Shown here piece by piece: positions 1 through 46,235 of a stretch of DNA of 47,598 nt (position 1 is the first letter of the stretch; every line of letters starts with the position of its first letter). A program made the translations under genes and the position numbers. This DNA comes from Proteromonas lacertae (lineage: Eukaryota): the NCBI GenBank assembly GCA_002245135.1, contig NGBS01000344.1:1-47598 (forward strand). The letters run 5' to 3'. A model generated the notes under the pieces. The model worked only from the letters and a program-made list of their open reading frames with translations, was not told the DNA's origin and did not search any database.

Positions 1-767
1 TTATAACCATTACTATCGTTTTTAATTTTCATATTAAAGTTTACACGAAATTCATGATTGCACAAATCGATGTAGAGGAATGAATGATTACTGTAATTGG
101 TTGCATACTTGTAATATTCTCTAAACTTACTGAAATCTACCCATAAATCTAAACTATTATGAACACTGTGTAGATTAGCTAAACTTAGATTTCTAAATAC
201 TAAGCAATAATCTAATTGTAGACGAACAGATGGTGTTAAATCTGTAACATATTGACTTGATATAATTACTTTTGACTTGTAATGACGGTTTGATTTGAGT
301 AGTTTTGAAACGGTCTTATTTGATAAATCGAATGATATATCATCGAATATAAAGATATTTTCAGGATAGCTATAATTGTCTTTATCAACATCTGTGATAT
401 TATTCAATACTGCATCTAATACATTCACTTTATCTTCATTTACTATTGAATCGTAACAATGGTACTCTATTAAATTGTACTTCAGCATATCAGTGATCTT
501 TTCATAAATAATATCCTTTGAAATTGTTCCTACAAAGAAATATACAGTTTGATCATAATTCTTCTTTAACAAGTGTTGTATCATGTTAAATATAAGCGTT
601 GTCTTTCCACTGTTCTTCTTAGCTAATATAAATATATTGCAGAAAGGCTCTTCAAAATAATCATAGCCTAAAACATTATCTCTTGATCTCTTTTTATTAC
701 CTTTGACTACTGATTCTACTGGCGTTATGACAACGTCATTACATTTCTCTAGTTTTATTTTACTCAT
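1..767 (-). CDS. A32/FtsK-HerA family DNA packaging ATPase (3' end runs off window)
   Basis: Manual translation from ATG at 767: MSKIKLEKCND...NIFILAKKNSGKTT (Walker A)...NIFIFDD (Walker B)...LLKSNRHYKSKVIISSQ (arginine-finger/Q motif of A32 ATPases)...HSFLYID. 255 codons open with no stop before base 1. Confidence 0.92.
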   Translation of the reverse strand, partial: MSKIKLEKCNDVVITPVESVVKGNKKRSRDNVLGYDYFEEPFCNIFILAKKNSGKTTLIFNMIQHLLKKNYDQTVYFFVGTISKDIIYEKITDMLKYNLIEYHCYDSIVNEDKVNVLDAVLNNITDVDKDNYSYPENIFIFDDISFDLSNKTVSKLLKSNRHYKSKVIISSQYVTDLTPSVRLQLDYCLVFRNLSLANLHSVHNSLDLWVDFSKFREYYKYATNYSNHSFLYIDLCNHEFRVNFNMKIKNDSNGY

Positions 768-835
768 TTAAAGAAAAAACAAAAAAACAATTATATAAAG
801 AATATAACCATTATGTTAGTTATTAGTTAGTTAGT

Positions 836-2293
836 TTAAATAACACTTACAATTCCACTTCCATTGATTGTACACATTCTTCCTGTAACTATATAGAAAC
901 GATGAGTGATATTAAAGTTAGTGAAATCATTTGTACCAGGAGTAGACAACTCAAAAGTGATCTTTAAGTCACTAGCTAATGGTCTTCCTGATTGATTCTT
1001 GATATTATCCAAGTCTTTAGATCCAAAATTCAAAATTTCAAAGAACTTCTTTTCAAAAGGAATATGTCTTTTGAATATATCAAACCATGAATCTTTGAAA
1101 TAATCTTGTACAGTCATGTAACTATCATAATACTGCATTAATGAATAGTCTGGTTGATACACAAAATCGTTAATCATCCATCTGAATTGTGCATTTTCAG
1201 GAATTACTGCATATCTATTTTCTGCTGTGCCACCACTCATATCATGTGCTGTTTGAGTTCCTTCGATCCATGGTCTATAGATAATGTAACGTAAGAATGG
1301 TCCATTTGAACTGTTTAATGTAAAGGAATAGTTGAATTGTCCAGATCCACCTTGATTTACTGTTAATGTATGACACTTTACATCATTGAACTGGATTGGT
1401 TTAGATAAACAGTAACTTCTTGTATTGTTATTACATTGAGTATCCTTATTCAAATAAGCATAGAAATAAAAGTTCTTGAATTTAATTGAATCTGGTCTTA
1501 TTCCATCTGTAGGCCAGTTTATTGTTGTAGCTGCGCCTTTATCATTATTAAAACCCATAATTTGTCCAAATTTAGGACTTTGTTGGAAATTGAAACATAA
1601 ATACATTCTCTCTCCAAAGAATACATCACTTTTCATTGATAAAAATGTATTGTAAAATTTACCTAAAAACATCTTTACATGAATAGTTTTAGACTTTTTA
1701 TACTGTTGATATTTATCTTTTGTTCCAGTAGCTGTAACAAATGTAGCTTCTTCTTTATCCATTTCCCATTCATTTTCATCAAGAATTAAATGATCATGGT
1801 ATTCATCATTCCATTTTAATTGAATTCCATCATAATAGTTTGATTGATAAAAAATGTCAGATCTTTTTCTCACTAATTCATCCATAAACACTCTATAGTG
1901 TTCATAATTGTCATCAAGCTTAACTAGATCTGTTCCTGTATTATTACATAAACGAAATGCTGCTAATCCAAATCCTTCTTTCATTCCTTTTATATATTTT
2001 GGATATAAAGTAGTATCACCTGCTACATCACCACTACCATCAGTTTTTTTAAATGCATTTGCTGCAGCAAGTGGATGAGTTTCAATTTCGATATCATATT
2101 GAATGTAAGACTTTGCAAGGTTTATAATGTTCTCACCACTTAATTCGAACCTTATTTCATCTGAATAAGTATTATCTTTAAGTTGATAGAATGATTTTGT
2201 TTCCATTGGTGTCAACTTGACATACTGGTAAAAGGCCATCATTGCTGGAACGTCTACACCGTGTTTTTGCTCTTTTGGGATAGTTAGAGACAT
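836..2293 (-). CDS. Putative double jelly-roll major capsid protein (Polinton/PLV type), ~485 aa
   Basis: Likely start MSLTIPK at 2293. N-terminal EIRFELSGENIINLAKSYIQYDIEI and internal KMFLGKFYNTFLSMKSDVFFGERMYLCFNF resemble Polinton/PLV MCP patterns. Beta-strand-rich, right size, lies between penton and ATPase. Confidence 0.8.
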   Translation of the reverse strand: MSLTIPKEQKHGVDVPAMMAFYQYVKLTPMETKSFYQLKDNTYSDEIRFELSGENIINLAKSYIQYDIEIETHPLAAANAFKKTDGSGDVAGDTTLYPKYIKGMKEGFGLAAFRLCNNTGTDLVKLDDNYEHYRVFMDELVRKRSDIFYQSNYYDGIQLKWNDEYHDHLILDENEWEMDKEEATFVTATGTKDKYQQYKKSKTIHVKMFLGKFYNTFLSMKSDVFFGERMYLCFNFQQSPKFGQIMGFNNDKGAATTINWPTDGIRPDSIKFKNFYFYAYLNKDTQCNNNTRSYCLSKPIQFNDVKCHTLTVNQGGSGQFNYSFTLNSSNGPFLRYIIYRPWIEGTQTAHDMSGGTAENRYAVIPENAQFRWMINDFVYQPDYSLMQYYDSYMTVQDYFKDSWFDIFKRHIPFEKKFFEILNFGSKDLDNIKNQSGRPLASDLKITFELSTPGTNDFTNFNITHRFYIVTGRMCTINGSGIVSVI

Positions 2294-2324
2294 CAGAAAC
2301 TCAAAATAAAAAATAAAATAAAAA

Positions 2325-3290
2325 TTAGACTTTAAATACAACAATATCTAAATTAAACTCGATATTATCAAGATTGAGTTCATAACCATTTTGTTGAGTA
2401 ATCTGAATAGTAATTTGTCCATTAGTATAAGTATTATTGAACATTTTGCTAGTATTAAGAATGTCATTGTTCTGGTATGTAATAAATGGTAACTCAGGGT
2501 TTGCTATTGGTATATTTTCTAACACATTTGAATCTTGAATGATGTTTACAATATCTAAACGAATGGATATCGCACTAACCCATATAAGAGATGGACGATA
2601 TGGTAATTGAGTAAATGGGAAATCTACTGAAAATGCAGCTAATGCTTTTTCTGTTCCTTGAGGTCCTGGAACAAATTTATCATAACATAACCAATAGTTA
2701 TTATTTGGAATACCTAATATCTTGTAGGCTAAATCTTTTGTTACTATTTCTATTTTTGAAATCCAAAAAATAGGTTTTGTTAAACTATATAATGCATTCA
2801 TTTTACTTGCAATTTTTAAATGTCTGGTATGTTCATCATCTTTATCATCTAGCTTAAATAAATCACCATTACCTTCTATTACAGGTGTATATAGTATATC
2901 CTTAACTATAAACAAATCATCATCAGGAATTTCGAAATCTATATATTTTATAGAACGTATTCCATCATTGATTAACTTAATAATCTGATTCTCATCATAA
3001 AAACCTTCAGGGATTTGTACTGATACACATACTGTGGGTTTTTCTGGCGCTGCGCCATCTTCTTTATTATAATCACATGTAAATAAGAACTGAAACGTAT
3101 CGTTTGTCTCTGCTTGTATAGTAGGGAAAGAATTGGGTACAACTGCGTGTAATAACGACACATGAGTATAATCTTGATCAAATGATGGTAAGGCTAAGGT
3201 CTTTTTGTATCTATTCCCTACTCCGAATGTCCCTGTAGTCATTACCATATCAGAATTTAAATAGTAAACACGGTGATTAGAGACTAACAT
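2325..3290 (-). CDS. Putative minor capsid (penton, single jelly-roll) protein
   Basis: VYYLNSD...VSLLHAVVPNSFPTI...VQIPEGFYDENQIIKLIN and C-terminal ITIQITQQNGYELNLDNIEFNLDI match the PLV/Polinton penton pattern (i.l....ipnS.y.I; ip.G.Y). Directly upstream of the MCP. Confidence 0.82.
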   Translation of the reverse strand: MLVSNHRVYYLNSDMVMTTGTFGVGNRYKKTLALPSFDQDYTHVSLLHAVVPNSFPTIQAETNDTFQFLFTCDYNKEDGAAPEKPTVCVSVQIPEGFYDENQIIKLINDGIRSIKYIDFEIPDDDLFIVKDILYTPVIEGNGDLFKLDDKDDEHTRHLKIASKMNALYSLTKPIFWISKIEIVTKDLAYKILGIPNNNYWLCYDKFVPGPQGTEKALAAFSVDFPFTQLPYRPSLIWVSAISIRLDIVNIIQDSNVLENIPIANPELPFITYQNNDILNTSKMFNNTYTNGQITIQITQQNGYELNLDNIEFNLDIVVFKV

Positions 3291-3307
3291 TTTGAAAAAA
3301 ATAATAA

Positions 3308-3339
3308 TGTCAATATTGGTAATATTAGTAATATTGACA
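3308..3339. promoter_or_regulatory. 32-bp imperfect palindrome in the divergent intergenic region of the viral module
   Basis: TGTCAATATT-GGT-AATATT-AGT-AATATTGACA: 10-bp perfect outer arms and three AATATT hexamers at 9-bp spacing, between ATGs at 3290(-) and 3353(+). Confidence 0.6.
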
Positions 3340-3352
3340 CTATTTTTATTTT

Positions 3353-3976
3353 ATGGAAGATAATAAAAAACCTAAACATAGAACAGTTCCATTCAAATTA
3401 ACAGAATTAGACAAACAAGTAATCATCAGAAGCTTCAGAAAAGACGGTAAAATCAGAGCTCCCACAAAATCGAAATTATATCATTTAATTTCAGGATCAA
3501 AATCAAGACTTACATACTCAGAGATAAGATATATATTGAAATACATCGAAGATGAGTACAAATATTACATAGAATCAAAGTTTAAGACAGGTTGTTTTAA
3601 TGGACCAATCATTGAACAAGTAAAAGTACCTCTTAACGCGCCAAAACTAACCGCTTCAAGCTTCGCTCAAGCCTTAAGTAAACACAAAGAACACAGAATT
3701 GCAGGTCAAAAGAAGACAAGAATGATGTTAGAACAGATTTTAGCATTACATAAGAAGGAAGAAGAGGATTTTTTACCTCCACAAGAGATAATTGACATAA
3801 AAGATGACGAAATTAAGGTAAAAGAAGAGGTAAATTACGTAAAACCGGTCACAAAATCGAATGTAAACAGTTTAAGTGGTTTAGAAGACTTGTCTCCTGT
3901 TAATTCAGTTCCTAGTTTAAGCCCAAAATCAATAACAGATAAAAGCATTATAAGACCTAATTGTATTATTTTTTAA
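3353..3976 (+). CDS. Hypothetical basic protein, probably viral
   Basis: 207-aa intronless ORF divergent from the capsid cassette; Lys-rich; no family recognised. Confidence 0.65.
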   Translation: MEDNKKPKHRTVPFKLTELDKQVIIRSFRKDGKIRAPTKSKLYHLISGSKSRLTYSEIRYILKYIEDEYKYYIESKFKTGCFNGPIIEQVKVPLNAPKLTASSFAQALSKHKEHRIAGQKKTRMMLEQILALHKKEEEDFLPPQEIIDIKDDEIKVKEEVNYVKPVTKSNVNSLSGLEDLSPVNSVPSLSPKSITDKSIIRPNCIIF

Positions 3977-4009
3977 TTATTTTTGTTAATTGATTTAAAA
4001 TTTTTTCTT

Positions 4010-4246
4010 ATGGGGAACGATATAATGACAATTTTACTCTCTGTATTAGTATTTATACTCTATATGCTCGCTCTGGCACTGTACAAATACTTCAAAGCAC
4101 ACAATTGTATTCCAAATGAGGTAGATATCGCAGACATTCGTTCAAATATGACTGATATGATGGAGAAAGGCTTGCAGCATGACAAGACATTGGAAGATAT
4201 AAAGGCATATATAGACATTGTGAATAAAAGAAAGCACACAGTTTAA
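4010..4246 (+). CDS. Small single-pass membrane protein, probably viral
   Basis: ATG at 4010; hydrophobic helix ILLSVLVFILYMLALALY followed by a short helical tail. Confidence 0.55.
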   Translation: MGNDIMTILLSVLVFILYMLALALYKYFKAHNCIPNEVDIADIRSNMTDMMEKGLQHDKTLEDIKAYIDIVNKRKHTV

Positions 4247-4281
4247 ATAATTTGTAACGAATTAATTTTTTATTATATATT

Positions 4282-4372
4282 AAACGGCTATTTTTTAGGG
4301 AAAGTGAAACGACTCTTTATTTAGGGAAAGTAAAACGACTATTTTTTAGGAAAAGCAAAACGACTATTTTTT
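4282..4372 (+). repeat. ~25-bp direct repeats, about 3.5 copies (TTTAGGGAAAGTRAAACGACT-like)
   Basis: AAACG(A/G)CT cores at 4282, 4307, 4333 and 4358 (spacing 25/26/25). Confidence 0.85.
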
Positions 4373-5002
4373 CATTAAAGAAAATAAAACTTATTATTGA
4401 GATTCGAACACGTTTTCATCATTTAAATAGCAACGGTTAAACCGTTAGACTAAATAATTGCCCAAAATAAAGTACATGTGACGATTCATTTTGTACAATG
4501 TCGTTTGAAGAATAATTCTCAAACGTTGTGTCAAAAATAGAATATGAAGAAATTTCTGAGAAAATTCAAAAATTTGAATTTTCAAACATTCAAATCTATT
4601 ATGACGAGATTTGACTTGAACAGTTGGTTTGTGCATCAAATTTCAAATCTATTCTGAAATTATTTAGTTGGCTTGTCCAAATTGAAATTGAAGAATCATA
4701 TAAGAATATTTGTGTTTTGTTATTTTTAAAAATATTGATACGGCATTTAGAGCAAATTTGAATTTTTGAATTTTTTAATTTCGCGCCTTTTTTTTATTTT
4801 TTTAAAAAAATATTCCTTAAAAAATTATATCCGTTTCAATTCAAGCCACAGAATAGTCGAACTTTTTTTCAAACATTGAGTGCTAGCATAGTTATAAAGT
4901 CACGTTTTACATCAAACATTTTGATTTGAGTCAATATTTACACTAATCGTAAAAATTGATCTCAAGCTTTTTCAATTTCAAAAATCGTCAAAATCATCAA
5001 AA

Positions 5003-5782
5003 ATGAGTAAAACTATCGTCAAAATTCTTTATGAAAATGGTAATGGAACCTTGCTCGAGAATGCTCTCGCAAATATAGAGCGTTTTAAATCCGATTCCTA
5101 TTCGATGTATGAATTTGATCCTTCAAAAAGTGTTTTAAATCGTTCTGAAGATGAAACAATTGCAGATATGAAAGATTTACATGACGAATTCATAATGGAA
5201 GATTTACTTAACTATTTAGCAAAAAGTGTATTTTTTCAATTTAATTTTAGGAATAGCTATTTTGGTTAGAGTGAATGAAAAAGACGAGCCTGTTGATGAT
5301 GATTTACAATCTGATGATGAGATGGTCAAGCAAGTTGTATTCAACAGCTGTGGTGTAAACACCAACAAGAAGACCTTAAAAAGAATGGATTTCAAAGGCT
5401 GTAAATTTGTGGTACCAAATGGTAATTATCCAAATGAATACAGTTTTAGTTACATTGATGTGGTACAACCAAAGAGAATTCTTAAAGTTGCCAAGAATAG
5501 TGTATGGAGTGCTCCTAAAAAGGTTAAACAAAGAGATCATCAAATTGAACAAAAAGAAGAAGTTGTAAATTTAACCAATGAAAAAGTCAAACGTGCATTT
5601 CCCATTATGAGCACACATGGAAAAAGAGAAGAATTCATAATGTGTTAAAAATGAGATCAATTGATGATCAAGAAAATGCTGTTAAACAATTAGTGAACAT
5701 CACTATCAACAATGAATTAAGATTGCCTGAATTAGAATTATCAAACTACTATTAAACAATTGAAATCTTAATTCTTGCATAA
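5003..5782 (+). CDS. Spliced hypothetical gene (viral or host origin unresolved)
   Basis: A 25-nt GT..AG intron at 5226-5250 joins ORFs 5003-5269 and 5226-5648 in frame (AK-R-IAILVR). Coding-like sequence continues to ~5782 via apparent frameshifts. TCAAGCTT lies 41 nt upstream and TGTTTGTT at 5794. Confidence 0.5.
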
Positions 5783-6084: not shown

Positions 6085-6199
6085 TGCGCCGTTGAGCGTT
6101 AAGATGACTTTTTTCAATTCTAAAATGATAGTGTGTGGTTTGATGGCGAGTTATATGCAAATATAATCTTACTTTGTCATATAAGCTACATCTGCGATA
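6085..6199 (+). repeat. 115-bp dispersed repeat, inverted copy at 23838-23952
   Basis: The reverse complement matches 23838-23952 with one mismatch by eye. Confidence 0.9.
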
Positions 6200-6448
6200 C
6201 AGTCAAAACCGTGTAATATGTACTCTTTTTTACCTAAAAGTTCATATTACATTTTTGTTTATTGCATATGATTTTTGGGGATGCTAATCTCAACATATAA
6301 ATTTACCATGTATTTTTATGTAATATACTTGCAGCTTTTAATAAAAAAATAGATAATTACGTTAATAAAATATCAAATAGTATTGACTGTTTATAGAGAA
6401 TAAGATAAAATTATCAAAAAACTTGAATTTTTCAAGTTGCATTTTATA

Positions 6449-6912
6449 ATGTCAGCAGTAAAAAGACCTTATGATCAAGTATATAACTACTTCAATACAA
6501 ACGTAAGCATAACCAAACCTACTGAAAAGTCGAAAAGAATTGAATGTAAAACATGTAAAGAAATAGTTGTATGTCATGCCACTTGCTTAAAAAGACATGT
6601 GAAAAAGTATAATATATATAGATTATAATTTATTAGCTGCAAAAAAAGTAAAATAGTTCAAGAAAAACTGGATCTAACAAAATACAATCAGAGAAAGATT
6701 AACGGTTATTTAGCTGATTTTATTATAGAGAATTCATGCAGTTTTAAGTTGATTGAATCAAAAACATTTAAAAACTTAATCAAATCTATCAACCCTTCCA
6801 TTAAACTAGGTTCAATCAAGTCTGTTAAAGATATAATTAAAGAAGAAGGTGAGAAGATAGTAAAAGAATGCATTAAAACCAATGAAAAAATGTGTATTAT
6901 AATAGATGGATG
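6449..6912 (+). pseudogene. hAT transposase, N-terminal part (BED zinc finger to first catalytic Asp)
   Basis: VYNYF...IECKTCK...LKRHVK (BED finger), short intron at ~6607-6636, then YLADFIIENSCSFKLIESKTFKNLIKSINP...MCIIIDG, cut by an insertion. Confidence 0.88.
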
Positions 6913-6999
6913 TGTTGTTCCCCGTATGGCGGAAATCTATATTGCAGAATGATTCAATCAAAACTAATATGATATTCATGATGTTCGGAGTTAGTTATT
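6913..6999 (+). repeat. Left terminal inverted repeat of the Ginger-like element
   Basis: Near-perfect reverse complement of 15295-15398. Confidence 0.93.
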
Positions 7000-7879
7000 T
7001 TAGAATATATAGGTTTCGACCCATATAAACAACTTTTTTAGGCAACGAAAAAATGTCTTAATATGACATGAAACCTATCTAGATAGACTACAAAATTCAT
7101 GTAGATTATGAATATAATATTATTTTATATATATACACTCAAAATGAAAATTATCAGTTATTCAGGATTTAAGAATTTGACCCCTTCTGACGTCATTTCT
7201 GTCTCGAGTTTTCTATCAAACTTTTGAAATGTTTTTCTTGATTTTTCTTATTATATAGTGTTTTTTAAATTACTTTACTATAAATATTAGAATTAATAAT
7301 GAACAATTTACCATTTGATATACATAGAAACTAAAATACAATTAAATCTACCTAAATAGCTAATGTTCATATATTTTATAATTTATAAATGAAATGTTTA
7401 TTAAACAATTTATAATTATTTATTTTATATAGCTTATTTTAGTTAACTGCTTCTATTTACTAATTACTTAAATATGAGACTACTGCATATTTCATTTACT
7501 CATATTGGATAAGAACCATTATTAGTTGATTATAAATTTAAGTTAATTCTATTCTAAAGTCATCCTATACAGTCATTTAAAAATATATCCGTTTCCTTTG
7601 ATATTTGAATTTAATTTTGAAAATGTAAGTGCTATATATATTATTTATATATTATTATTATATATTATTATTATATTATAAATTATATACTCATGTAATC
7701 ATATTAATATATTTATTACCTGATTTTAGATTTAATATAACAATCATCCTTACAGTACTTGTTTATCAAATGTTGTATATGGTTTTTATACTTATTACAC
7801 TTGATTTTTTGTGATGAGTCATTTTAAACATCGTTATAAGCAGAATATAATTCTAGGTTACAATAATGAGTTTGATAAA

Positions 7880-10300
7880 GAGTGCATACACTAGTTATAT
7901 GATTTTTTAAAGTATTATGGAAATGATATGTCTTACTAGTTTATAAAAGAAGATCCACAAGATTATGAAATTGCTGGTTTGTTCGTTAAATTAAGAAACA
8001 TAAAAGAAAAAGCAATAATCTATTACAGTGTGAAAGATGAAAAAGTCATAAAAAGATTTGATTATCTTCATACAATTAATTCAAATGATATGTTTCAAGA
8101 AGTGGAGAGAGTAATATGATCTAATATGCTGTTTGTTAAATTAGATGAGATAATAGCTGATTTTGATAGTCCTTCAACAGGAATAGTAGATCCATCAGTT
8201 CCAACCACTACAGCTACAGCAGCACCCCAACAGAAGCTGCTCCAGGAGCAATAACATATTCGATTTATTAGTAATTTCTCAATGTCTTTATTATCAAATC
8301 ATCGAATAATAGAGAATATAAAACTTGCTTATATAGATGGAAGTAGTGAGATGGTAGTAAAAGAAATAATTGAAGTTTCATTTCTTCATTTGGGAAGTGT
8401 AAATGGTGATAATTGTAATGGTAATATATTATACAGTAATGCGATGACATACAGTTTACTTAGTCGAAGTTATCAAAACTTAATGAAAAGTTATGAGATA
8501 ATCACTTCCTTTATAACAAATGAAAGAAATTTAGTATATAAAGGAAGTTATGAAATGAAAGATATAAGCTGCACAGCTGCTTACGATGTAGTATCTCAAA
8601 TCAATACAAATTGTCAAGGAAGTTGTTTAATAATTAGTGTAATAACAATGAATAGTGTGGATTATCCAGTATTGAGTTTCAGTTTAGATGAGATAATAAT
8701 CAATAGTTATTTGAACAGTTATGAAAGTGAAAGTAGTAAATCGTTAAAAGAATCGTTGAAGTTATATATTGATTAACTAATTTTAACATCTACAATGTCA
8801 ATTGGTTATTCAATAATCAAAATATATGTCGATTCAATCAATCCGATAGGTAAAGATGAAACCGAATATAAAAACGATTATACAATAAGTGATGAGTTAA
8901 TAAAAAGTTCAAACAAACGAATAGGTATTTGGCTAAATGAAGAAAATAATGATGTTCGAATTTATTATATTATGAAGCAATATGAGATTTATATAAATTC
9001 AAATGATGGCTTTAGAGGTAATTCAATTCAATTATCAATTCTTTATTGTATGAATAATGATGAAGAATTAAGTAAGATGGTGAATAACACAGAATATGAG
9101 ATAATAATCAGTAATTGTAATAGAAATATAATTGAAAATCATAAGAATGAGATAGAAGAGAATAATGTGACCATATTTTCAATAAGAAAAGAAGATTCAA
9201 ATACATGTGATGATAAAATGTATAAATATATTATTATTGTTATTATTATTATTCTATATTGAATAGAATTCATTCTTCTACTTCTCCATCTCGAAGAGTC
9301 TTGCCAATAGTAGAATATTTGCTATCTAAATCAATATCCAAAATAATCTTAATCTATCCAAAAGGTTTTGAATATGCTTCAGATTATGATTTATTAACTA
9401 GTTCAATTAATGCATTAGGAGCAACAATATCTAAAGAATATAAAGTGAATGAAACAGATATTAATGACATTATATCAGCAGTTCAAGCAGCAATGGCTTC
9501 AGTTAGAAAATATATAAATGATGGTGGTTTAATCTTTAATTTATTAGAAACTGAAGCAAGTAATATAATGTATGAGAAACTGTTTAGCATATGAGAATAG
9601 CTAAGAAATCTCTTCAAAATATCGAATAATCTCCAGAAAGATAGAGAATTTTAAGAAAGTAGATAAGAAATATCGAAAAAGATATGACATCATTGTGAAA
9701 GTATGTGTTATACATATGATGATAGTTTAATTAGTAAAATAAGAATGTTAATATTTGGAAATGAAAGTATATTATCAGAAAGTGAATCTGTTGGAATAGC
9801 AACAATCGAATATATAAAATCTGATATAAATTCAATCAACTTATTAGAATTTCTTCAATCAAGTTCAATATTTACATCTTTTGGAGATATTTCAATTGGT
9901 TTTGATAATTGCATAAACTTCCCAATGTTTTTATTAACAAGTGTAGATGGTAAAATCGAAGAGAAAGTGATATTATATAAAAAATGGAATAGTGATACTT
10001 ATCAAAGCAATTTCAATGAGATTCATTTAAATCGAATAATAATATCTTTAATATTACTATTTCCAAGTACTGGATTATTTGCTTATCGTGGAGTAGATTT
10101 AGTATCAAGTTATTTATCAACAATCGAATATTTAAATGAAGTAGAAAGTGAAAGTGGTTTATTCTATCTACTGAAGATGTTAGAAGTAAAAGATCAGTTA
10201 TTAAGTTATTAAGAATATATTTCATACAGGAATTTCTTTTCCAACAAAATATCCAATAATCTCTTGGATTGGTTCTAATTTAGGTATAAAAGAACGGCTG
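7880..10300 (+). pseudogene. Captured, fragmented host gene cargo with type-1 periplasmic-binding-protein-like segments
   Basis: Broken ORFs 8282-8776, 8795-9262, 9259-9594 and 9703-10212 with a residual intron (~9221-9266). ISLILLFPSTGLFAYRGVDLVSSYLSTIEYLNE resembles the N-terminal motif of LivJ/UrtA-type binding proteins. Confidence 0.45.
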
Positions 10301-10616
10301 ACCAAGTTCCAATGATAAACTATAAAATGGAAGATATAGTATCAACATCAAATAGTGAATTAAGTTTGGTTTGGTATAATAATACTAATCAAATGAATTA
10401 TTCTAATCAATTATTATCATGGTTAAATTTGTTACCATTTGTTTTTTGTATTGGTGTTTGGTTTTTTACAGATACAATCAAAAACAAGAATCAAAAACAC
10501 AAATTAAAAACACCATATATATGACTGTTTTATTATCTATATATAATATAATATATACTATCTATTTATATAATCTATTTTATACATAATATATAGCTAA
10601 TTTATCTTTCATATAG

Positions 10617-11508
10617 GTTATCTGATAAGCACGATATTAGAGATACTCTTGAATATAATCATAAAGCAATCTTTTTTGAGAGTATTGAAGAATTAGTGAA
10701 AAATAAGAAACGTTCTTCTATTTTTACACAAAAGAAATTTGACGAATACATAAAATGTATTAGAGACTACAAGCATAAAGGTTTTGAATTCAATGAAACT
10801 GATGGTAAGCTTACATGCAAAGGAAAAGAGATCATAACAATTGATAAAGCTTTTACACTTATTGAGAAATTACATTTGGAGTTTGCTCATCTTAAATCTG
10901 ATCCTCTCTTTGATAAGATTCAAGAAATGAATTTATATGGAATAACAAGAGAAGTTGTAGAAATATATGTTAAATTATGCAATGGATGCAAAGAAACAAA
11001 GAAAATAACATTACAGAAACCAGTAAAGCCGATTATATCTCATTATCCTAAAGATCGTGTGGTAATTGATTTAATTGAAATGACAGCATTTAATCCACAT
11101 AAAAAAAGAGGTAAATACAATTATATATTGACAATGATAGATCATTATTCAAATTTTACAATGCTTTACCCACAAAAGACGAAAACAGATAGAGAAACAG
11201 TGAAGAATGTCCAGTCCTATATTAGAATCTTCGGTCCTCCAAGAATAATTCAATCTGATAATGGTGCAGAGTTTAAGAACAAATTGATGAAGGATTTATT
11301 AGAAAAGTACAATATTAAAGAAGTCCACAGCTCTCCAAGACATCCGCAATGCAATGGTAAAGTTGAAAGAATGAATAGATTAGTCAAAGAAACAATTACA
11401 AGTTATCACAATATTGAACCAAAAGTTTATTGGATAAATTTTATAGAAAGAACAATTGAAAGAATAAACTCATCAAAATGTAGAAGAACAAGATGTAAAG
11501 CTATATGA
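10617..11508 (+). CDS. Retroviral-like (rve) integrase/transposase of Ginger type
   Basis: HHCC finger LHLEFAH...LCNGC; DDE core VVIDLIEM, IIQSDNGAEF, PRHPQCNGKVERMN; also YILTMIDHYS. Frame is open back to a splice acceptor at ~10616. Confidence 0.93.
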
Positions 11509-11517
11509 TTATTTTTT

Positions 11518-13936
11518 ATGAGTGTTAATGAGATAATGAAACAGAATCCAAAGTTTAAACTTGAAGGAATAGTAGAAGAAGATTATGATGATGATAATAA
11601 TGATGATGATGTTTGTGATTATATTGATGATGATGTTTGTGATTATATTGATGATACTGATAATGAACTTGATGAATTATACTTCGATTATGAAGATAAA
11701 GATGATATAGATAACAATGAAATGAAGAAAAAGAAAAGAGAAGATGATAATTACAAAAAGAACGAGAAAAAGTTTAAAAAAGAAAATAGCAGGAAGAAAG
11801 ATAAAGATGATAATTTAGATGATAATTTAGATAATAATAGTTTAGAAGAAGACATAGTTGAGAATATAAATGATGATAAAAGTATAGATGAAACACTTTT
11901 AGATATTGAGAAGAATGAGAAAGAGACAATAGCGAAGAATGAAAAGATAAATAACCATGAAATTAAAGAGTTGAAATCAGTAAAAGATAAGAAGTTTACA
12001 AAAAATAAAAAGGTCTATGAAGATGAAATAGTAGATATTATTAATGAAACTAATGAAGATAATGATGAAGAAGAATCGACAGAAGAGGAAACTGAAAGTA
12101 ATGAGTTTATTGCTAATGTAACAAAGCACTTCAAAGCAGCAAATCAAATATATGATGAAATGAAAACTAGACAATATAAATATAATAATAATATGGTAAA
12201 TGTTTCCAAAAAGAAATTAAAAGGAAAAGAAATAGCTCTTAAAGAGGGAGATGTTGTTGTATATTCTGAAAATAGAAAGAATTATCAAGATAGAAACAAG
12301 TTTGCAATAGTTAAACAGGATAAGAAGGCGAAGAAAGAAAAGTTATATATAATGTATATTATTATTATATATATATATGTATATATAGAACTGATGATTA
12401 TAAAACTATTAGAATAAGACCATCAACGCCTGTACATAAAATACAACTCACAGAGGAAGTAAATGCTGTTACTAAAAGAAAAGCCAGTAAAATATATGTA
12501 CATATAAATATATATACAATATAATATAGATCGATAATACTCCACAAAAGAAGAATAAATATTGTTCAGAATCTGATATTGAAAGAATACACGACATTGT
12601 AAGAAATCCTAAGCTTAATGCTGTTTATGAAACAATAGCTATTCCTTTCAATGATAATATTGAACAAAATCAAGTTGATGAAAGAAAATTAAAATATGTA
12701 ATAGAATTGATGAATAGAATAGGTAAAGAACAATTGGATCTTGAAGATTTACAATATTTATTAAAATTATATTATTATAATAATATTTATAAAGATTATG
12801 ATAATAATTATTTACATGATGGAAAGTTTGAAAAGTTTTTAATCATATCCAATGGCATTTATTACACTATGGTTGTTAACAATAAAAAACAAACAGTTAA
12901 TATCATAGATCCATCAGGCGAAGGTAACTATGATGAAGATTTAAAGAAATTATCTACTCATGTTACAAGTACAGATGGAAATGATTATAAAGTAATGTAT
13001 GATGTCATCGAAGTAACCCATCCACAAGCAACAGAAATAATAGCATTAATTACTTTCATGGCAAGTATTAAAAAAACTCAATTTGGATTTATAGACAACG
13101 CATTAATGGAAATACTTTTCAAAGATTATTTAAAAACCTTGGTTAACAATCATTCCAGAATTATAGAGTTAGCATATATAGAAGTTATGCCGATTAAAGA
13201 AGATAATGCCAATGATCAAAACATCTTGTACGATGAAGTTCAATACAATTCATTAAATTTTTTGGATAAAGTTAGACTCAACTATCAATATAACGATGAA
13301 GGAGTAAGATATTATGGAACAGAAAAGGATTATTTTATTAGAAAAGTAAATGATATAAAGGATGTTTTAGACAAAGATACAATGTTGGATGATGACCAAT
13401 TCAAGATTCTCCTACATTTTATGAATAGTAATAATGATCATGTTGTAGATCCATTACTATTTTATTATCAAGACAAAGCCAAAATCAAAATCAACATAAA
13501 TGGAATATATTTTTTTCCAGTTGTTAAAGATTTACATTGGACGTTGTTTGAAGCAGATTATATAATAAACAGATACATCAAAATTACAGTTTATGATTCA
13601 ATGGGTTATTTTAGAAATAATAATAAAGAAAGAAGTGAAATAGTTAATACAATCTCATCAATATTTGTAATGAACAGTGAAGATTATGAACTTAAAGTGA
13701 AGTATCATGAATCCAAGTTGATGCAAGGTAAGGACAACAGTTGTGGTTATTATGTGTTATTTTTCTTAGCTGCGAGAATCAACTTCTTGGATATTGAAAA
13801 GATCCCAAACATTGAATCATTTAATATTGACTATTTTATCAAAGATATTAAGAAAGGATTACAGAATTTAGATGATAATGAAAAGGCAAAGATGTATTTC
13901 TATGCAAGTAAAAGACCAACTTATTACAAGAATTAA
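11518..13936 (+). CDS. C-terminal extension of the transposase: acidic linker, short exons, Ulp1/C48-type cysteine protease
   Basis: Same frame as the integrase after a single TGA. AT-rich introns at ~12342-12388 and ~12487-12529. Catalytic order FFPVVKDLHWTL (His), ITVYDSM (Asp), MQGKDNSCGYYVL (Gln/Cys). Confidence 0.82.
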
Positions 13937-14056
13937 TGCACTCATTATTACTTCTATTACTATTATAAACACTATATTTCTTATATTCTATTAATAATTT
14001 TTAATTTTTGAGTATAAAATAAAAAGCAACTGCATAATTTAAAACTATGTATAATT

Positions 14057-14929
14057 TGAATTACAATATTGTTCAGCTTTATAAATATATTATAAAATAT
14101 GAAATTATGTAATTTTGACTTAATCGATTAAGAAAATTTTTGAAATTTTGATATTCATTACATGTGATTATATATAAATGTAAATCACTTAATAAGCATT
14201 TGAATTATAATAATTTTGTTTCATTTCAATATAGATAATGTAGTTAAAAATCGATTCCGCCATATGGGGACTCCAATTTCATTCATCTCCCATATGGCTT
14301 TTAGAAGACTTACATTCATTTCATTTATATGAATGAATTACAATATTGTTCAGCTTTATAACTATATTATAAAATATGAAATTATGTAATTTTGACTTAA
14401 TCGATTAAGAAAATTTTTGAAATTTTGATATTCATTACATGTGATTATATATAAATGTAAATCACTTAATAAGCATTTGAATTATAATAATTTTGTTTCA
14501 TTTCAATATAGATAATGTAGTTAAAAATCGATTCCGCCATATGGGGACTCCAATTTCATTCATCTCCCATATGGCTTTTAGAAGACTTACATTCATTTCA
14601 TTTATATGAATGAATTACAATATTGTTCAGCTTTATAAATATATTATAAAATATGAAATTATGTAATTTTGACTTAATCGATTAAGAAAATTTTTGAAAT
14701 TTTGATATTCATTACATGTGATTATATATAAATGTAAATCACTTAATAAGCATTTGAATTATAATAATTTTGTTTCATTTCAATATAGATAATGTAGTTA
14801 AAAATCGATTCCGCCATATGGGGACTCCAATTTCATTCATCTCCCATATGGCTTTTAGAAGACTTACATTCATTTCATTTATATGAATGAATTACAATAT
14901 TGTTCAGCTTTATAACTATATTATAAAAT
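14057..14929. repeat. Tandem array, 277-bp unit, ~3.15 copies
   Basis: TGAATTACAATATTGTTCAGC recurs at 14057, 14334, 14611 and 14888; units near-identical. Confidence 0.95.
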
Positions 14930-15294
14930 TATATGAAAGTCAAAATTATAGAAATTCGATATTTAATGTATCTCATTTTTATAAAATCTTAAAGTATCAG
15001 TCTATAATATTGCAGAATATATTATTAAATAATTTTATGACTACTTTAGCATAAAAGAATTAGTAAATGTTTTAAAAATAGAAAAATTGCACAATTAAGG
15101 GGGTGAAAAAATTAAGGAATTTCATTATATTTTTTCGATTATCATAATAACCAGATGGAATTTTTTTATAATATTTTATAATATTCTTAGTTAGAATATG
15201 TACTAATAGAATATTAAATAATATTAAATATATTGGTGAATTGAGTGATATCGTCTCATGTCTTACATATGATAAAGTTTATTATATATTTGTT

Positions 15295-15398
15295 AATAAC
15301 TAACTCCGATCATCATGAATATCATATTAGTTTTGATTGAATCATTCTGCAATATAGATTTCCGCCATACGGGGATTTCCGCCATACGGGGAAGAACA
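15295..15398 (-). repeat. Right terminal inverted repeat (with internal ~17-bp duplication)
   Basis: GATTTCCGCCATACGGG occurs twice in tandem before GAAGAACA. Confidence 0.93.
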
Positions 15399-15403
15399 GG
15401 ATG

Positions 15404-16646
15404 GACTAATACAAATAATAGATCCATCATAAATATTGCTGTGAAACAAATTAATACTTACTTTCTCGAGTCAGTATTTATTGATGAGAATCAAACAGCC
15501 AAAAATATAGTCAAACTAATAGAGACTACGTTATTAAAATATGGTATTACTCATGATAAAATTGTGGCAGTTAGCAGCGACAACAACTACACCATGAAGC
15601 GTGTAGGCAAGATAATCCAGAGTATAAACAATGCTCCTGTGATTATTTGTGGCTGTATTAGCCACACACTTAATTTAGTTTGTAAGAAAGTTTTGGAGCT
15701 TAATAAATATAAATCTATTTTAGATAAATGTAATACAATAGCTCATAAGCTAAATACGTCAGTTACGATTAGAATAATAATATTCAATAAATTGAAAAAG
15801 TTTATACAAGTAAGAAAGGGAGTTACTACTCGCTGGAGTAGTTACTTCCAGCTTTTTAAAGGTGTGTTAGATAATCAAGAGATACTTGTAAGAATTAACT
15901 TATTAGATAAGAATGAAATACCTATAATTAAAGAATTATATAATATTACAGAATATAAATACCAAAAAGTTCAATATTTGAGTAGAGACAATTCTACTCT
16001 TTCATTTGCATATAAAGTACTCTCTAAAGCTAAAAAGGATCTATGTAGAATGAGTAGCACAGAAAAAGAAAAAATAAGTGTAATATATCAAAAAGAGAAG
16101 AAACTAATCAATTATAGTATATTGATATTAAGTGAGTATTTAGACGTGAGTAGTTCCAAAAAGTTTAATGAAAGAATTGTTAATAGTATAAAAAGATACA
16201 TTTTAAATAGATTTTCTCATATTTGTGATAAAAAGCTTACAGAAGAGTTATATTATTTTGAAAATAGAATGAGATATGGAATGTCTCCAGCTAATATTTT
16301 TGATAATTCGAAGGAAATGAATCCGAAGATATGGTACAATAGCTACGGATGTTATTTTCCCAATTTGAAAAGAATATTTGATTATCTAAACATAATCCCT
16401 ACAAGTTCTGCATATATTGAAAGAACGTTTAGTATTGAGTCATTTATTCATAATAAAACAAGGAACAAACTCAATATTAGTTTAATTAATAATATGATGA
16501 GAATAAAAATGAAACAGCTAAATGACAGAATAACTACAAATGAAGATAGTTATGACCATGACGATTATGATGAAGATGAAGAAAGTGATTATGATGAGAC
16601 CACCACAAAGCCCAACTTATTAATTATATTTCTTTTTTATTATTAA
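15404..16646 (+). pseudogene. hAT transposase, C-terminal part
   Basis: WTNTNNRSIINI, VSSDNNYTM, CISHTLNL (CxxH), TRWSS, IPTSSAYIERTFS (hATC dimerisation domain with catalytic Glu), RNKL. Confidence 0.93.
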
Positions 16647-16730
16647 TTTATTTTTTACAGAAATTAAAAAAAATTTAAGATTCTGTAGAATAATATCTCA
16701 TATTGGTAGTTGAGTGTGAGGAAATGGACT

Positions 16731-16800
16731 TCCCGATAGGGTTTTGTCCCGGGACGTGTCCCGTCCCTATCCCTCGTCCTATCCCCGTCCTGCCTACCCA
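16731..16800. repeat. GC-rich cluster of GTCC(C/T) motifs, probable hAT subterminal repeats
   Basis: TTTTGTCCCGGGACGTGTCCCGTCCCTATCCCTCGTCCTATCCCCGTCCTG just downstream of the transposase; no matching left TIR or TSD found. Confidence 0.55.
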
Positions 16801-16914
16801 AGAACATAACATATGTTGAAATTATTAATCTTTGTAATTATTTTATTTTTTAAATCGCTAGAATATATTAACATATATGTCTCATTAACATATTGATGTA
16901 AAAGAAAATTTTCT

Positions 16915-19900
16915 TTATTTAATATCTTCAACAAAAGTGTTTAATTCATCAAATGTAAAACATATTGTTCTTATCTTTTTCTTTGCTTCTTCAAAAAGTT
17001 TAGATTTATCAGTTTTATAAGTCATTGGTTGAAAAATTTTGGGATATTTAGATATTTTTCGATTATCTTTTAATCTTACACTAACTTCGTTATTTGGGCT
17101 TATATAAAATAAACCATATGGAGAATTATTATTAATAGCTGTTTTGTGTTTGAAAAACATTTTATATAGATTTTGAAGAATCATTATCATTTCAGGTGCT
17201 AATGAATGACTCTTTCCAACAGTAATTTGAATTCCATATGAACCTAGTAATAAATCAATATCGGGGTGATTATGTTTATAATTTAAGTCAATAATTGGAA
17301 ATTCTTTCTTCTTATAATTAAAAGTGTCTATTTCTTTCTGTAAATCACCATCATCTGAAACTTTAACTATTTCTTTTTTATCAAAGACAACATATTTATT
17401 CTTTTTATCATCTAAGTAATATTCTTTAATTTCATTAATCAAACTATCATAAAAAGTTTTACAATTCTTCATTAAATATGATATAATTCTTTCATATAAT
17501 AATCCAGCTAAACTTCCTACTGGATTTTCTTTTAATAGTTTTATCATTTTTTCACAACTTTCTTTATCATTTATCTTATAAAGTTTATCACATACCATCT
17601 TTTTGACTTCTTCAGATATAAATATAAGACCATTGGATTTTATAATACCATTTTCATCTTCATATGTATCATATATCAATATATTATCATATTCACCTTT
17701 TGAAAATGGAGATTTATTTATTCCTTTTAATATTTCTTCCATTATCACTTTGTTCTTTTCATCATTAATTGCAGTATTTATATATTTTTCACTATCTTCA
17801 TTTTTATAAAAACCAATAATACCTTTATATAATGGATATTTTTCTTCATACACTTTTTTCCACTTGTTATATTTATTCTTATTGAAAAATATTTGTGATT
17901 CATTAGAATTTATTTCATCACTATTTGTAAATCCTTTATATGTAATATCCAGTTCAATTCCATTCAATTTTCTAACTTCAATAAATCTTGTTTCTCCAAC
18001 TTTCTCTACTTCTTCTTGTGTTAATTGAGGTATATACATTATTGATGGAAATCTTTTACTTTGAAATGTTTTATACTGATTCTTGGATGGATTAGCTAAT
18101 AATATTATCATTTTTGCATCTGCATAATCATCTTCACCAATTACAACTTCATCAGAAATTACTATTTGAAATTTATTTTTCTTATCATAATATTCTTTGT
18201 TTTTGTAAGGACAGGTTTTTCCTTTAATTAAATGTAATATACTAACACTTTTACCGAATGCCTTATGAATATCCTCTCTAATGATATCAACAAACTTTGA
18301 CTTTCCTATTCCATTATGACCAAATATTAAATAATTTCTTTGGTTATCATTATTAATATTAAAATTTGAAGGGAAAATAATATTCAACATCTTTTTATAA
18401 CATTCTCTCACCAAAGTAACTTTACTATTATGTATATACACTTCCATTTTTGATAAAACTATTCTATTAGTAGTACTTGATGATAATAATGTTAGTGATG
18501 GTAATTTTGGTGGTGATGTTGTAGCTGATGGTGGTGATGATATATTCCATTGTTGCTCATCTTCTTTTTCTATTTCTACTTCTTGTTTTTCTTTTCTTTC
18601 CGATTGTTTCTGTTCTATTTCTACTTCTTGTTTTTCTTTTCCTTCTTGTTTCTGTTCATTGTCATCATCTTCATCCTGTCCATTATCTTCTTCTTCTTCT
18701 TCTTCTTGACTTAATGATATAGGAAAAGTATCATTATATTTTACTCTTCTATTTAGTATTATACAACATTTAAACTCATATCTTTCATTCATATTATATT
18801 TCTATTTAATTATAAATATAAATATATGTATATACTCTTATAGATTCTTTTATTTTTTCTTGTATTTCATCATCATTCTTAACTTTTTCATTATTCAGAA
18901 GTACTTTTATAAATACTCCATTCATTATCAAGTCAAAGAAATTATTTTCATCCAATATATAAAACACTGATTGTAAAGAATTTGGAGGATGATAAACTGG
19001 AACATATAACTCAGAATTCATTTCAAAATTAGAATCTTCATAGTTGAACTCAATCATACCAGTACTTAATTCATATGCTATTATCTGTTTTAATGCCATT
19101 CTTCTCATATATATATCATTAGTTGATGTATAATATTCTTCAATCTGATGATATTCTTTTTCATTTTTAGGTGGATTAAATTTACATACTATATATCTTT
19201 CTACTTCTTCAGAAATGAATTTCAATTTTCTTTCTGGTTGTAGTGTCATTCTTCCAACTTCATTATCCCATACTTGTTTTAAATCATATTTTAATATAAT
19301 GTTAGATAATTCTTTCAATTTATCTTTTCCCATATAATCATTTACAAACTGAATATAACCTGTTGTTCCTACTACACTTTCTATTAACTGCTTATAATAT
19401 TTCCAATAATCTCTATTATAATTATTGTTATACAAATAATGGTAATATATTTGTCGAGGATTATTACCATACTTTTCACATATTAGATCAAATTCAGTAC
19501 CTTTATCAAAATTAATACAATATGTAAACCATTCTTCTATTTCTGTTTTATTTAAAGTATCAAAATATAAATTTTTAGTATTGTTATCAATATATGTTTC
19601 ATGATTTTTAAAATCAGGAGAACTGATTGATATTACTATATTACTATCCTCAAACTCCTCATTATAAGTATCAACTATTATCAACGAATACTTAATATCA
19701 TGTGGATTTATTTTGATTTTAAATAGTATATATTCTCCATTAATATTTTCAAACTTGTATACTTCACCTTGTTTTATATCACCATATTTCTTCCCTTTAA
19801 TGAAATATATGTTTTTCATCTTTTTACAAGCATCGAAAACATAATAATTAAATCCAATACCTAAATCTTCTTTTACTTCAACATCTTTTATTTCATTAAT

Positions 19901-22176
19901 TTTATCTATTATTTCATCTTCTTTCTTTTTCATGTCTATTTTTGTTTCATTAAACTCTTTTGTAATACTATTAATTTCACTAGTAATTTCTGTTTTTCTT
20001 CGTTTATATAATTGTATTGATTGATTCATTTTCTTTATATTCACCAATCTGTTTAATATTCTTTCTGTTATTACTCTTTTACATATAACATCATTATCAT
20101 TTATATTTTTTCTTTTTATCCAATTTTTAAATTGATTTAATTCTTTATCATTAATTACTTTTTTAGCATCATTCAAATTAATGATTTCCTCCAAATTCAA
20201 ATTATTCTTTCCTTCATATATTGTGTTAGTTAAATTTTTATTATGTTTGATTGTCATTTCTTTATCATATATTTTCAATTTATATGTTTTTCCTTTTTGA
20301 GTGTATAAATCATGCTTATCTTTTTTATCATCTATTGTTTTAATCCTATTAATCTCTTTTGTAATATCTTCTTTTAAAATATTAATAGATTTATTACTTT
20401 CTTTTATATCAGCTTTAAGTTGTTTTATTACAATATTCAAATCAACAATTCTTTTCTCCTTTTCTTTATTCAATTCATTCAGAAATTCTTCTATCTCTTC
20501 ATTTTCTTTATTCAACTGTATTTTCTTCAAATATTCTTTTTCTTCTTCTCTATAATCATATGATAGATTATTCTTTAAAAAGAACAACAATACATATATG
20601 AAAGAGGTTTTGCCAATACCTGGTTGACCTGTAATGACTATGGAATCTATTTCATCACTTGATAAGAGTTTACATATATCTCTAAACATTGAATTGTAAC
20701 AATCTCTTATGTAAATAATATTCTTTGGAAACTGGAATACTTTCACATTGGCTTTTGAGAACTCTAAATATTTCTTTGTTTCACCAATTTCAACAGCATT
20801 ACTATTTTCATCGAGTTTAGTAAGTTCAATTATTTTCAAATTATTCACTATTTTAACGAAAGTATCTGGTGAATCTAAGTACTTTGTATTTTCATCATCA
20901 AAATATGTTAATAGTATTATTAAATCATTTATATCACTATTAGATAAATAATCTTCTTGAATTTCATTTAATAAAAATATATCTTCTATTCTTTCTTTTA
21001 TTACATTAATATCAATATTTGTTGGATTGGCTTTGATTGATAATAGTTCAGATATCCAGTAATACTTTTCATAGTTGTATATACTACAAATAGTATTTGG
21101 CACTTTATTCCATGAATTACAGCTTTACCATCTTCAATATTAATTGCATTAAATAAATGATAATCCTTTTTCTCTATATAATATTCTATTAATTTCACTA
21201 AACCTTTTCTATCACCAATACTAATACATGGATATATTGATGAAGGTAAGTTTTCATACACTAGTTTTTCAATACCATTTTCCTGTTTAATAAACATTTT
21301 CTTTTCATTCATATTATATTTCACTTCATATATTTCTCCTCTACTTCCTTGAATTGAAGATACTATTGGTATTGTTTCATCTCCAATTGTATAACCAAAG
21401 CTAATATTTTCATTACTAACACATTTTATCTCAAAATAGAAATGATAAATTCCACTTTTCTCTTTCATTTCTTCATTTATTGTAAAATAATACTTATTAC
21501 TACGTATATCTTGAAATAACTGATTACACACTACATATTGAATTTCATCCATTTTATTACCACCATTACTGCCATTATTATCATAGCTGTACAATTCATT
21601 GATAGACTTTTTGTAATTAACTACATTACAACTTTTATCTTGAGTAGTATTAATATCATATTTTCTAATTGTATATCTTTCTATCATAGGTAATGGAAGA
21701 TTCCAACTGCTTAAATATTTAACTGAATCATTTTTACCATCAATATATGGGTAAACTGTTGTTGAACTAATTCTACATACACTCACTTCTTTGTTATTTC
21801 CTTGTCTAATTGACATTCTTTTGTTAATCATATCATATATCACTTCATATGTATCTCCTACTGTTGCAACGACAAATGCATCATCTTCACTAATTGAATC
21901 TTCTTTCAGACGATAACCAAAACTAATACCATCAGTTAAACTCTCTACTTTGACTTTGAAATGATAAATCTTATTCTCCATCTTTTCGGAGATTAAACAA
22001 TCTTCTTTAGGAACATCTATATTAACGATTTCTGTCATTTCTTCTTCCATACCTTCTTTATCTTCATCTTTATCTTCTGTTTTTCGTTTTTTGGTATTTT
22101 TATCTACTTTGTCTTCATATGTTGACTTTCTCTTTTCTATTAAAAAAGTAATAACATGCAAAAGAATACCACGCAT
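16915..22176 (-). CDS. Large Crinkler/RHS-like protein: two SPRY-like repeats, P-loop NTPase with coiled-coil insert, second NTPase and PD-(D/E)xK-like nuclease
   Basis: Walker A motifs ITGQPGIGKT and IFGHNGIGKS, each preceded by YIRDCY/LVRECY. C-terminal PDIDLLLGSYGIQITVGKSHSL. A 34-nt intron (18802-18835) joins two ORFs in frame; one 1-nt frameshift near 21105. Confidence 0.7.
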
Positions 22177-23790: not shown

Positions 23791-23837
23791 TATGACAAAT
23801 GGCGCACAACAGTTGAGATAAAGTCCAAAAAAATATA

Positions 23838-23952
23838 TATCGCAGATGTAGCTTATATGACAAAGTAAGATTATATTTGCATATAACTCGCCATCAAACC
23901 ACACACTATCATTTTAGAATTGAAAAAAGTCTTCTTAACGCTCAACGGCGCA
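23838..23952 (-). repeat. Second copy of the 115-bp dispersed repeat
   Basis: Reverse complement of 6085-6199. Confidence 0.9.
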
Positions 23953-46121: not shown

Positions 46122-46235
46122 TCAACTGTAAAGTTTATATGCAAAAGTCTATATGCTACAAATTAGAATAAAGAATTATGTATTTTAATGGTAAATTTGA
46201 CATTTTTACGTAGAGTAAGTTCTTTTTTGCATTCT

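Follow-up and report, generated by a model that had tools for sequence, protein, structure and literature searches.

A Polinton-like virion module, probably integrated in a gut-protist chromosome, and its capsid clade

Mavericks, or Polintons, carry terminal inverted repeats and a 6-bp target-site duplication. The operational definition of Polinton-like viruses (PLVs), as worded in the accessible part of a recent preprint, includes a 15-45 kb genome, terminal repeats, and genes for replication and integration (bioRxiv 10.64898/2026.06.19.733378). Endogenous PLVs are common in protists; the available portion of the survey of Bellas et al. (2023) reports more than 35,000 hits to the major capsid protein (MCP) in 462 genomes (PMC10120064), and one more capsid cassette is therefore unsurprising. 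Tables S1, S3, and S4 of that survey include 285 MCP hits, all in one cluster column, for the 52-Mb assembly of Proteromonas lacertae; that these are MCP counts standing under the heading 'Iterative HMM searches' is our own reading of the table. Here we analyzed a 47,598-nt stretch of DNA (the window), of which positions 1 to about 4,300 are almost certainly the virion module of a PLV and likely represent the right-hand end of such an element integrated in an AT-rich gut-protist chromosome. A first-pass annotation, made from the sequence alone, had read this region as the virion module of a Polinton-like element (Preplasmiviricota) set in a genome resembling that of a gut protist, and the identities of the MCP, the penton, and the packaging ATPase described below support that proposal.

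The virion module and its genes

Positions 1-4246 of the window contain five open reading frames (ORFs), three on the minus strand followed by two divergent ones on the plus strand. The features of this region and of its right-hand border are as follows.

3-767, minus strand: A32-like genome-packaging ATPase, 255 aa; the reading frame exits at the window start
836-2293, minus strand: MCP, double jelly-roll, 485 aa
2325-3290, minus strand: probable penton or minor capsid protein, 321 aa, with an inserted domain at about 63-232
3295-3352, no strand: imperfect palindrome in the penton/ORF4 spacer, arms of 29+29 nt
3353-3976, plus strand: ORF4, an intronless orphan, 207 aa
4010-4246, plus strand: ORF5, an orphan with a hydrophobic N-terminal segment, 78 aa
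4247-5002, no strand: non-coding junction zone, set apart by composition; the right end of the element lies somewhere inside
4282-4372, no strand: three imperfect direct repeats of about 25 nt (family D1), spacing 26 and 25
5003-5648, plus strand: first intron-bearing gene rightward, with a predicted GT-AG intron of 25 nt at 5226-5250

The ATPase, MCP, and penton genes are separated by spacers of 68 and 31 nt. The chance of equally long stop-free runs at this base composition is 1e-10 for the ATPase, 1e-19 for the MCP, and 3e-13 for the penton. Both the MCP and the penton align over their full length with all eight of their respective relatives, and the N- and C-termini agree. The description of the triad as adjacent, co-oriented, intronless, and unbroken was thus confirmed, ORF coordinates included, with run lengths far above chance.

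The MCP was recognized by its fold. The protein matched no Pfam family at E<=0.05 and no PHROG, and PDB sequence searches with the MCP and with a 124-sequence profile gave 0 matches. An AlphaFold2 model computed from a 9-sequence alignment (pLDDT 57) has the double jelly-roll that had been anticipated, and Foldseek placed Sputnik first (E 5e-10), then the PBCV-1 and mavirus MCPs, to 2e-9. In VIA-align, viral capsid or scaffold proteins took every one of ranks 1-14, the best with Z 15.8 and an rmsd of 4.4 over 324 aligned positions, and the first unrelated row reached only Z 7.2. The best fold match in BFVD was a 'MELD virus sp.' protein (E 6e-11, 12% identity). The Atlas neighbors were viral clusters, in two of which MCP Pfam families are found on 10% of the members. 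These results indicated that the 485-aa protein has the double jelly-roll capsid fold of a PLV MCP.

A direct Pfam scan gave no PF04665 match for the window ATPase itself. The protein has 101 relatives at E<=1e-5, the closest of them 74-80% identical, and many carry a precomputed PF04665 assignment. Walker A (49-56), Walker B (138-143), and the conserved NRHYK and SSQ motifs are all present; we take the last two to be the arginine finger and the Q motif. Together, the PF04665 assignments of the relatives and the conserved motifs identify the A32-like packaging ATPase that belongs to the definition of a PLV. The closest relatives measure 282-287 aa, and the portion outside the window corresponds to an acidic tail that is itself missing in several relatives. 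The gene had been described as intact; this holds for the catalytic core, which is complete, but the gene is truncated by the window start and its acidic C-terminal tail falls outside.

Scans with the ATPase alignment yielded 85 distant loci among the matches listed (the best 80 of 108 in the last scan), several of them near-duplicates. The MCP, a minor capsid protein (mCP), and the ATPase occur together in 33 of these 85 listed loci, and 16 have the window order mCP-MCP-ATPase. When 34 ORFs chosen from the loci were scanned against Pfam, some matched DNA_pol_B_2, rve, Prim-Pol/D5 helicase, Peptidase_C48, or C5. Two loci with the same cassette look near complete: L033 (16,151 nt), with a DNA polymerase B of the protein-primed type (pPolB), an SF3 helicase, and RVE-chromo, and L042 (17,830 nt), with PrimPol-D5 and RVE. 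Ulp1/adenain-type proteases were found in L014 and L001, and two IMG/VR records, complete and about 19 kb long, have direct terminal repeats and lack rve. These environmental loci are PLVs in the sense of Bellas and Sommaruga, as that usage is given in the accessible part of the preprint cited above (bioRxiv 10.64898/2026.06.19.733378). A profile built exclusively from the environmental loci matched the window MCP at E 5.5e-13 (best other E 0.28).

The model of the 321-aa protein is a single jelly-roll built from the N- and C-terminal segments, both halves with low confidence. Foldseek placed the mavirus and Sputnik pentons on top (E 4e-4 to 9e-4), as VIA-align did Sputnik (Z 6.8) and PBCV-1 (Z 6.5), values that are weak taken alone. 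A profile of ten environmental genes in the minor-capsid position, six of them first found via the window family's own profile, matched the window protein at E 2e-11 (best other E 0.01), and hhalign gave a probability of 97%. The 321-aa protein is therefore probably the penton or minor capsid protein expected of a PLV. The single jelly-roll matches that had been predicted for it were recovered, but the structural model is weak and it is the profile match that carries the identity.

The two divergent ORFs are less informative. ORF4 has no Pfam or PHROG match and no significant match among the ORFs of the 85 related loci; by its position it is probably viral. As a candidate homologue of the N-terminus of the kin's protease, or of their other conserved ORFs, it was rejected, no score exceeding those of 200 shuffles. 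ORF5 gave only sub-threshold matches along its hydrophobic stretch and is possibly a small membrane protein. The arms of the palindrome at 3295-3352 are 83% complementary, and the structure occupies nearly all of the 62-nt spacer between the penton gene and ORF4. A perfect 10-nt arm pair like the one it contains was found in 107 of 5000 shuffles and in 8 of 767 window tiles. It is a candidate bidirectional promoter, a suggestion and nothing firmer.

The capsid family and Proteromonas lacertae

Word-indexed searches returned eight MCP and eight penton relatives, all of them in Logan only. When 1.84 billion representatives were searched with a profile, 140 MCP matches emerged, 13 of them at E<=1e-30 and the others beyond a gap; the distant matches are mostly 430-570 aa long. 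The close family members that were looked up came from Logan only, and the five distant ones looked up came from JGI, ENA, and NCBI. At E<=0.001, Pfam assigned no family to any of 74 MCP relatives. No relative was found in MCP scans of viral and metagenome contig collections or in ATPase scans with the single protein. Relatives of the MCP, the penton, and the ATPase share the longest-contig sizes 4759 and 4779, which suggests that they carry linked triads. On one relative contig the penton is split in two, which would fit an integrated copy in decay, and many of the relative MCPs are fragment-sized.

In a FastTree of 85 MCPs, the window protein falls in a 13-member clade with a Shimodaira-Hasegawa (SH) support of 1.0 and a stem of 1.13. 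This tree comprised the window, 12 close full-length relatives, the distant sequences P0046-P0099 of at least 420 aa, and the locus MCPs, without fragments and P0100-P0168. The corresponding tree of 124 ATPases placed the window in a 16-member clade (SH 1.0, stem 0.49). Three distant ATPase relatives, P0225, P0239, and P0260, carry the name Lithocolla globosa in EukProt, which may link the environmental sister group to a host.

Table S3 of the survey by Bellas et al., which clusters MCPs that share 25% identity or more across 30% of their length, prints a 450-aa MCP of P. lacertae, of which 400 aa are visible (PMC10120064). Six motifs found in 8-10 of the 13 members of the window's MCP clade, versus 0-5 of the 72 sequences outside it, are all seen in the same order in the visible part of that protein when compared by eye. 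Because the motif match spans many blocks, the window MCP very probably belongs to the same family, and the deep clade in which the capsid falls likely takes in the multi-copy endogenous MCPs of P. lacertae as well. In the literature searched, which excluded subscription papers and bioRxiv supplements, this MCP cluster was neither named nor characterized beyond table rows and a passing mention; in the accessible text of one preprint, the PLVs of P. lacertae come up only where they are set apart from the Halocafeteria ones (bioRxiv 10.64898/2026.07.28.741278). The statement that the capsid could not be assigned to a named clade holds with the tools used here. The further suggestion of an undescribed lineage is weakened, since the same MCP family has apparently been detected already in P. 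lacertae, with 285 hits, and it survives insofar as no naming or characterization was found. The window protein thus appears to be a new member of a gut-protist capsid clade that was detected before and for which we found no characterization.

Integration, neighboring DNA, and alternative explanations

In the assembly, the virion module runs on without a gap into DNA with transposons and intron-bearing eukaryotic genes, and we consider it quite probable that the element is truly integrated. The GC content is 29.5% in the viral part versus 25.3% on the host side. The observed/expected ratio of CpG is 1.74 in 4247-4900, versus 0.55 in 1-4246 and 0.39 in 23953-47598. The repeats at 4282-4372 are candidate subterminal repeats of the element or of its neighbor. 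No Rfam or tRNA match was found in the junction zone. A tRNA-like RNA suspected near 5.8-6.0 kb was discarded after ARAGORN and Rfam gave no match.

The frame of the gene at 5003-5648 is open only if the GT-AG intron is removed, and the gene is predicted to lie on the host side of the junction. The introns predicted rightward measure 25, 28, 28, 29, 29, and 48 nt, and the eukaryotic genes in that direction include Prp3_C, BTB, kinases, alpha-galactosidase, Sin3, and a mitochondrial carrier. The octamer TGTTTGTT occurs nine times in the window, about four of them after gene ends and none in 1-4246, versus six times for its reverse. We take it to be the Blastocystis downstream element, for which the published core is TGTTGTT; it is too weak to fix the host. 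In the available part of one report, human Blastocystis has introns of 30 nt, and tortoise isolates have 21-23% GC and more variable introns (PMC12129017). Together with the virus family, the introns of 25-48 nt and the low GC make it somewhat more likely than not that the host is an opalinate stramenopile, probably a gut protist of the Proteromonas/Blastocystis type.

Nearby genes had been described as often broken. The Sin3 gene is open once five predicted introns of 28-48 nt are allowed, but the transporter-like gene at 46.2-47.6 kb does have frame jumps in its coding sequence. Some of the gene breaks may be assembly errors, because the arms of an inverted duplication in the window differ by single-base indels. 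The argument that the insertion is recent, drawn from the contrast with broken neighbors, is therefore weak; the contrast is confounded by short introns and by indels possibly introduced in the assembly. The transporter-like gene (46200-47560), which from its motifs we presume to be an acetyl-CoA transporter, has several frame jumps and is either a pseudogene or affected by sequencing indels. The inverted duplication, of 1.24 kb and near perfect (38516-39759 and 40204-41448, with few single-base changes and indels), breaks a kinase-leucine-rich repeat (LRR)-like gene and is either a foldback element or an assembly artefact. Paralogous kinase plus LRR-like genes lie at 26868-29415 and 36632-38596, about 9.7 kb apart and 73-78% identical in blocks. 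Three large P-loop NTPase genes on the minus strand (16915-18792, 18806-20689, and 33370-34920) have only sub-threshold Pfam matches; their layout resembles that of Crinkler/RHS-type NTPase proteins.

Transposons are prominent in the same region. An 8.5-kb element at 6911-15390 has TGT...ACA ends, 93-nt inverted arms, and a 5-nt target duplication, and sits in the catalytic DGW motif of a hAT transposase, which it splits. It carries an rve integrase (10927-11508), a Ulp1 protease (12710-13936), three tandem copies of 277 nt (14057-14910), and about 3 kb of fragmented unidentified ORFs (7860-10600). We regard it as Ginger-like, and as such unusually large. An inverted pair of 115 nt (6085-6199 and 23838-23952, 99% complementary, 17.6 kb apart) encloses, besides the hAT transposase, three large genes that are orphans or of the P-loop type, with no evident target duplication; 6085-23952 is possibly a giant cargo-carrying hAT element. 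Near its putative right end, 23198-23790 is palindromic; its arms measure 182 and 69 nt and agree at 96%.

The explanation that we consider probable as a whole is that the window begins with the right end of a PLV, including its capsid module, integrated in a gut-protist chromosome. Several observations weigh against it. In its visible part, the element, which extends beyond the window, shows neither a terminal inverted repeat nor a target-site duplication, nor genes for a replicase, integrase, or protease; a terminal repeat or a target duplication cannot be shown because the other end is outside. AT-rich composition is common in free PLVs too (26-39% GC in the long loci). The structural models are modest (pLDDT 57 for the MCP and 58.5 for the penton, below 50 in the penton jelly-roll). 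The MCP and ATPase phylogenies that had been proposed as a check gave well-supported clades of their own, but they were midpoint-rooted and built without named Polinton, PLV, or virophage references. The six motifs were picked after the alignment and the Proteromonas sequence had been seen and were compared by eye; among the 13 MCP clade members there are 3 that carry none or one of them. In addition, ten Blastocystis assemblies appear without an MCP count in Table S1 of Bellas et al. (PMC10120064).

The strongest competitor is a cassette that is integrated but dead or non-autonomous, its ORFs simply undecayed or dependent on a helper. The place of the module, bordering on DNA rich in transposons and nested insertions, the split pentons and many fragment-sized MCPs among the relatives, and the lack of a replicase, integrase, or protease in the visible part all agree with such a remnant. 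However, 3.3 kb of sequence hold all three genes without a break, their termini match those of relatives 69-80% identical, and the rest of the element lies outside the window and hence is not demonstrated to be absent, so that we consider a remnant unlikely, if by no great distance. Less probable still is that a virus, free or episomal, was sequenced along with the protist and then wrongly joined to a host contig. The viral part does lie at the extreme end of the window, next to a junction zone of unusual composition, and the assembly contains indel noise and the 1.24-kb inverted duplication. Multi-copy elements, however, commonly break assemblies at such points, and the 285 hits of the same MCP family in the P. 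lacertae assembly include, in the tables available, some more than 100 kb inside contigs (PMC10120064).

A true virophage (Virophaviricetes) parasitizing a giant virus of the gut would account for Sputnik and mavirus proteins at the top of the Foldseek results for both MCP and penton. Yet the identity is only 10-12%, VIA-align places PBCV-1, faustovirus, and African swine fever virus (ASFV) ahead of Sputnik for the MCP, neither the window MCP nor its 74 relatives have a Pfam match, and the kin are PLV-like; we regard a virophage as very improbable. A lifestyle that depends on a giant virus is conceivable even so; a preprint on egoviruses reports no gene flux between egoviruses and Blastocystis. 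Finally, Polintons and some of the kin carry RVE and a C48/C5 protease, and the window integrase shares 28-30% identity with its counterparts in L042 and L033, as if the rve and Ulp1 genes belonged to a viral element of about 15 kb. This idea is largely refuted and can be given almost no credence: both genes lie inside the transposon at 6911-15390 with its own ends, intron-bearing DNA separates them from the capsid genes, and the Ulp1 has no match among the environmental loci.

If the integrated PLV functions as its solved relatives do, the icosahedral shell would be paved with trimers of the MCP and closed at its vertices by pentamers of the penton, and the linear double-stranded DNA genome would be driven into it by the ATPase at the expense of ATP. 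Host RNA polymerase II would transcribe the virion genes and the two divergent orphans from the palindromic spacer. As in the nearest environmental kin, the left part outside the window would hold a replicase, either pPolB or a primase-SF3 helicase, and an integrase, most likely RVE, possibly with a cysteine protease. That this copy is able to make virions is conceivable but rather doubtful.

The interest of the locus lies in its lineage, with long-stemmed MCP and ATPase clades found here only in raw-run assemblies. The sole host link found is a gut stramenopile, for which the available table, with its 285 hits in an assembly of 52 Mb, suggests that the viral load is large (PMC10120064). Electron microscopy of Blastocystis is reported to have shown virus-like particles measuring 30 nm and up to 200 nm, and no genome assigned to them was found in the accessible text (PMC12835684). 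The intact module supplies markers for gut metagenome screening and proteins to express, and makes the existence of active DNA viruses in these protists testable. A bolder and, at present, unlikely proposition is that the element is active and belongs to a deep lineage, as yet unnamed, of DNA viruses that form capsids and have radiated specifically in Opalinata (Proteromonas, Blastocystis, and their kin), integrating in many copies and still producing particles in the vertebrate gut. If true, it could be induced from cultures and provide an isolable DNA virus and a gene-delivery vehicle for gut protists.

Comparison with known systems

The current Pfam capsid profiles, by which Mavericks/Polintons (Polintoviricetes) are recognized in the strict sense, do not detect the window MCP, and the visible 4.2 kb of the element, the rest of which runs off the window, contain no pPolB or RVE integrase. 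The virophages Sputnik and mavirus resemble the window in combining a double jelly-roll MCP, a single jelly-roll penton with an insertion domain, and an A32/FtsK ATPase. They differ in their 10-12% identity, in that the window has no virophage MCP profile match, and in that no protease is found in the visible 4.2 kb.

The Blastocystis MELD virus, found in Blastocystis datasets, is described in the available part of its report as having pPolB, an integrase, and unrecognizable virion proteins (Starrett et al. 2021, PMC8502044). The 'MELD virus sp.' protein matched in BFVD, whose source MELD virus is not stated, is 12% identical to the window MCP and probably lies outside its family, because the close members checked are found only in Logan. 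Gossevirus (GKS1) and VC35 are protist PLVs that, like the kin described here, have a cysteine protease and mixed pPolB/helicase and RVE/tyrosine recombinase (YR) modules, and GKS1 is integrated in stramenopiles, according to the accessible parts of the sources (PMC7805220; bioRxiv 10.64898/2026.06.19.733378). The visible part of one printed GKS1 MCP has, by eye, none of the six motifs of the window family.

The environmental PLVs (L001, L003-L085) share with the window a homologous MCP, mCP, and ATPase. Their ATPases are mostly 24-41% and their MCPs about 20-27% identical to those of the window; unlike in the window, a small ORF usually separates MCP from ATPase in the loci examined, and their mCP is without much of the insertion of the window penton. 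The MCP of the P. lacertae cluster was likewise confirmed by fold only, with PBCV-1 as its best match, and comes from a gut stramenopile. By eye, its printed part looks nearer to P0006-P0008 than to the window protein.

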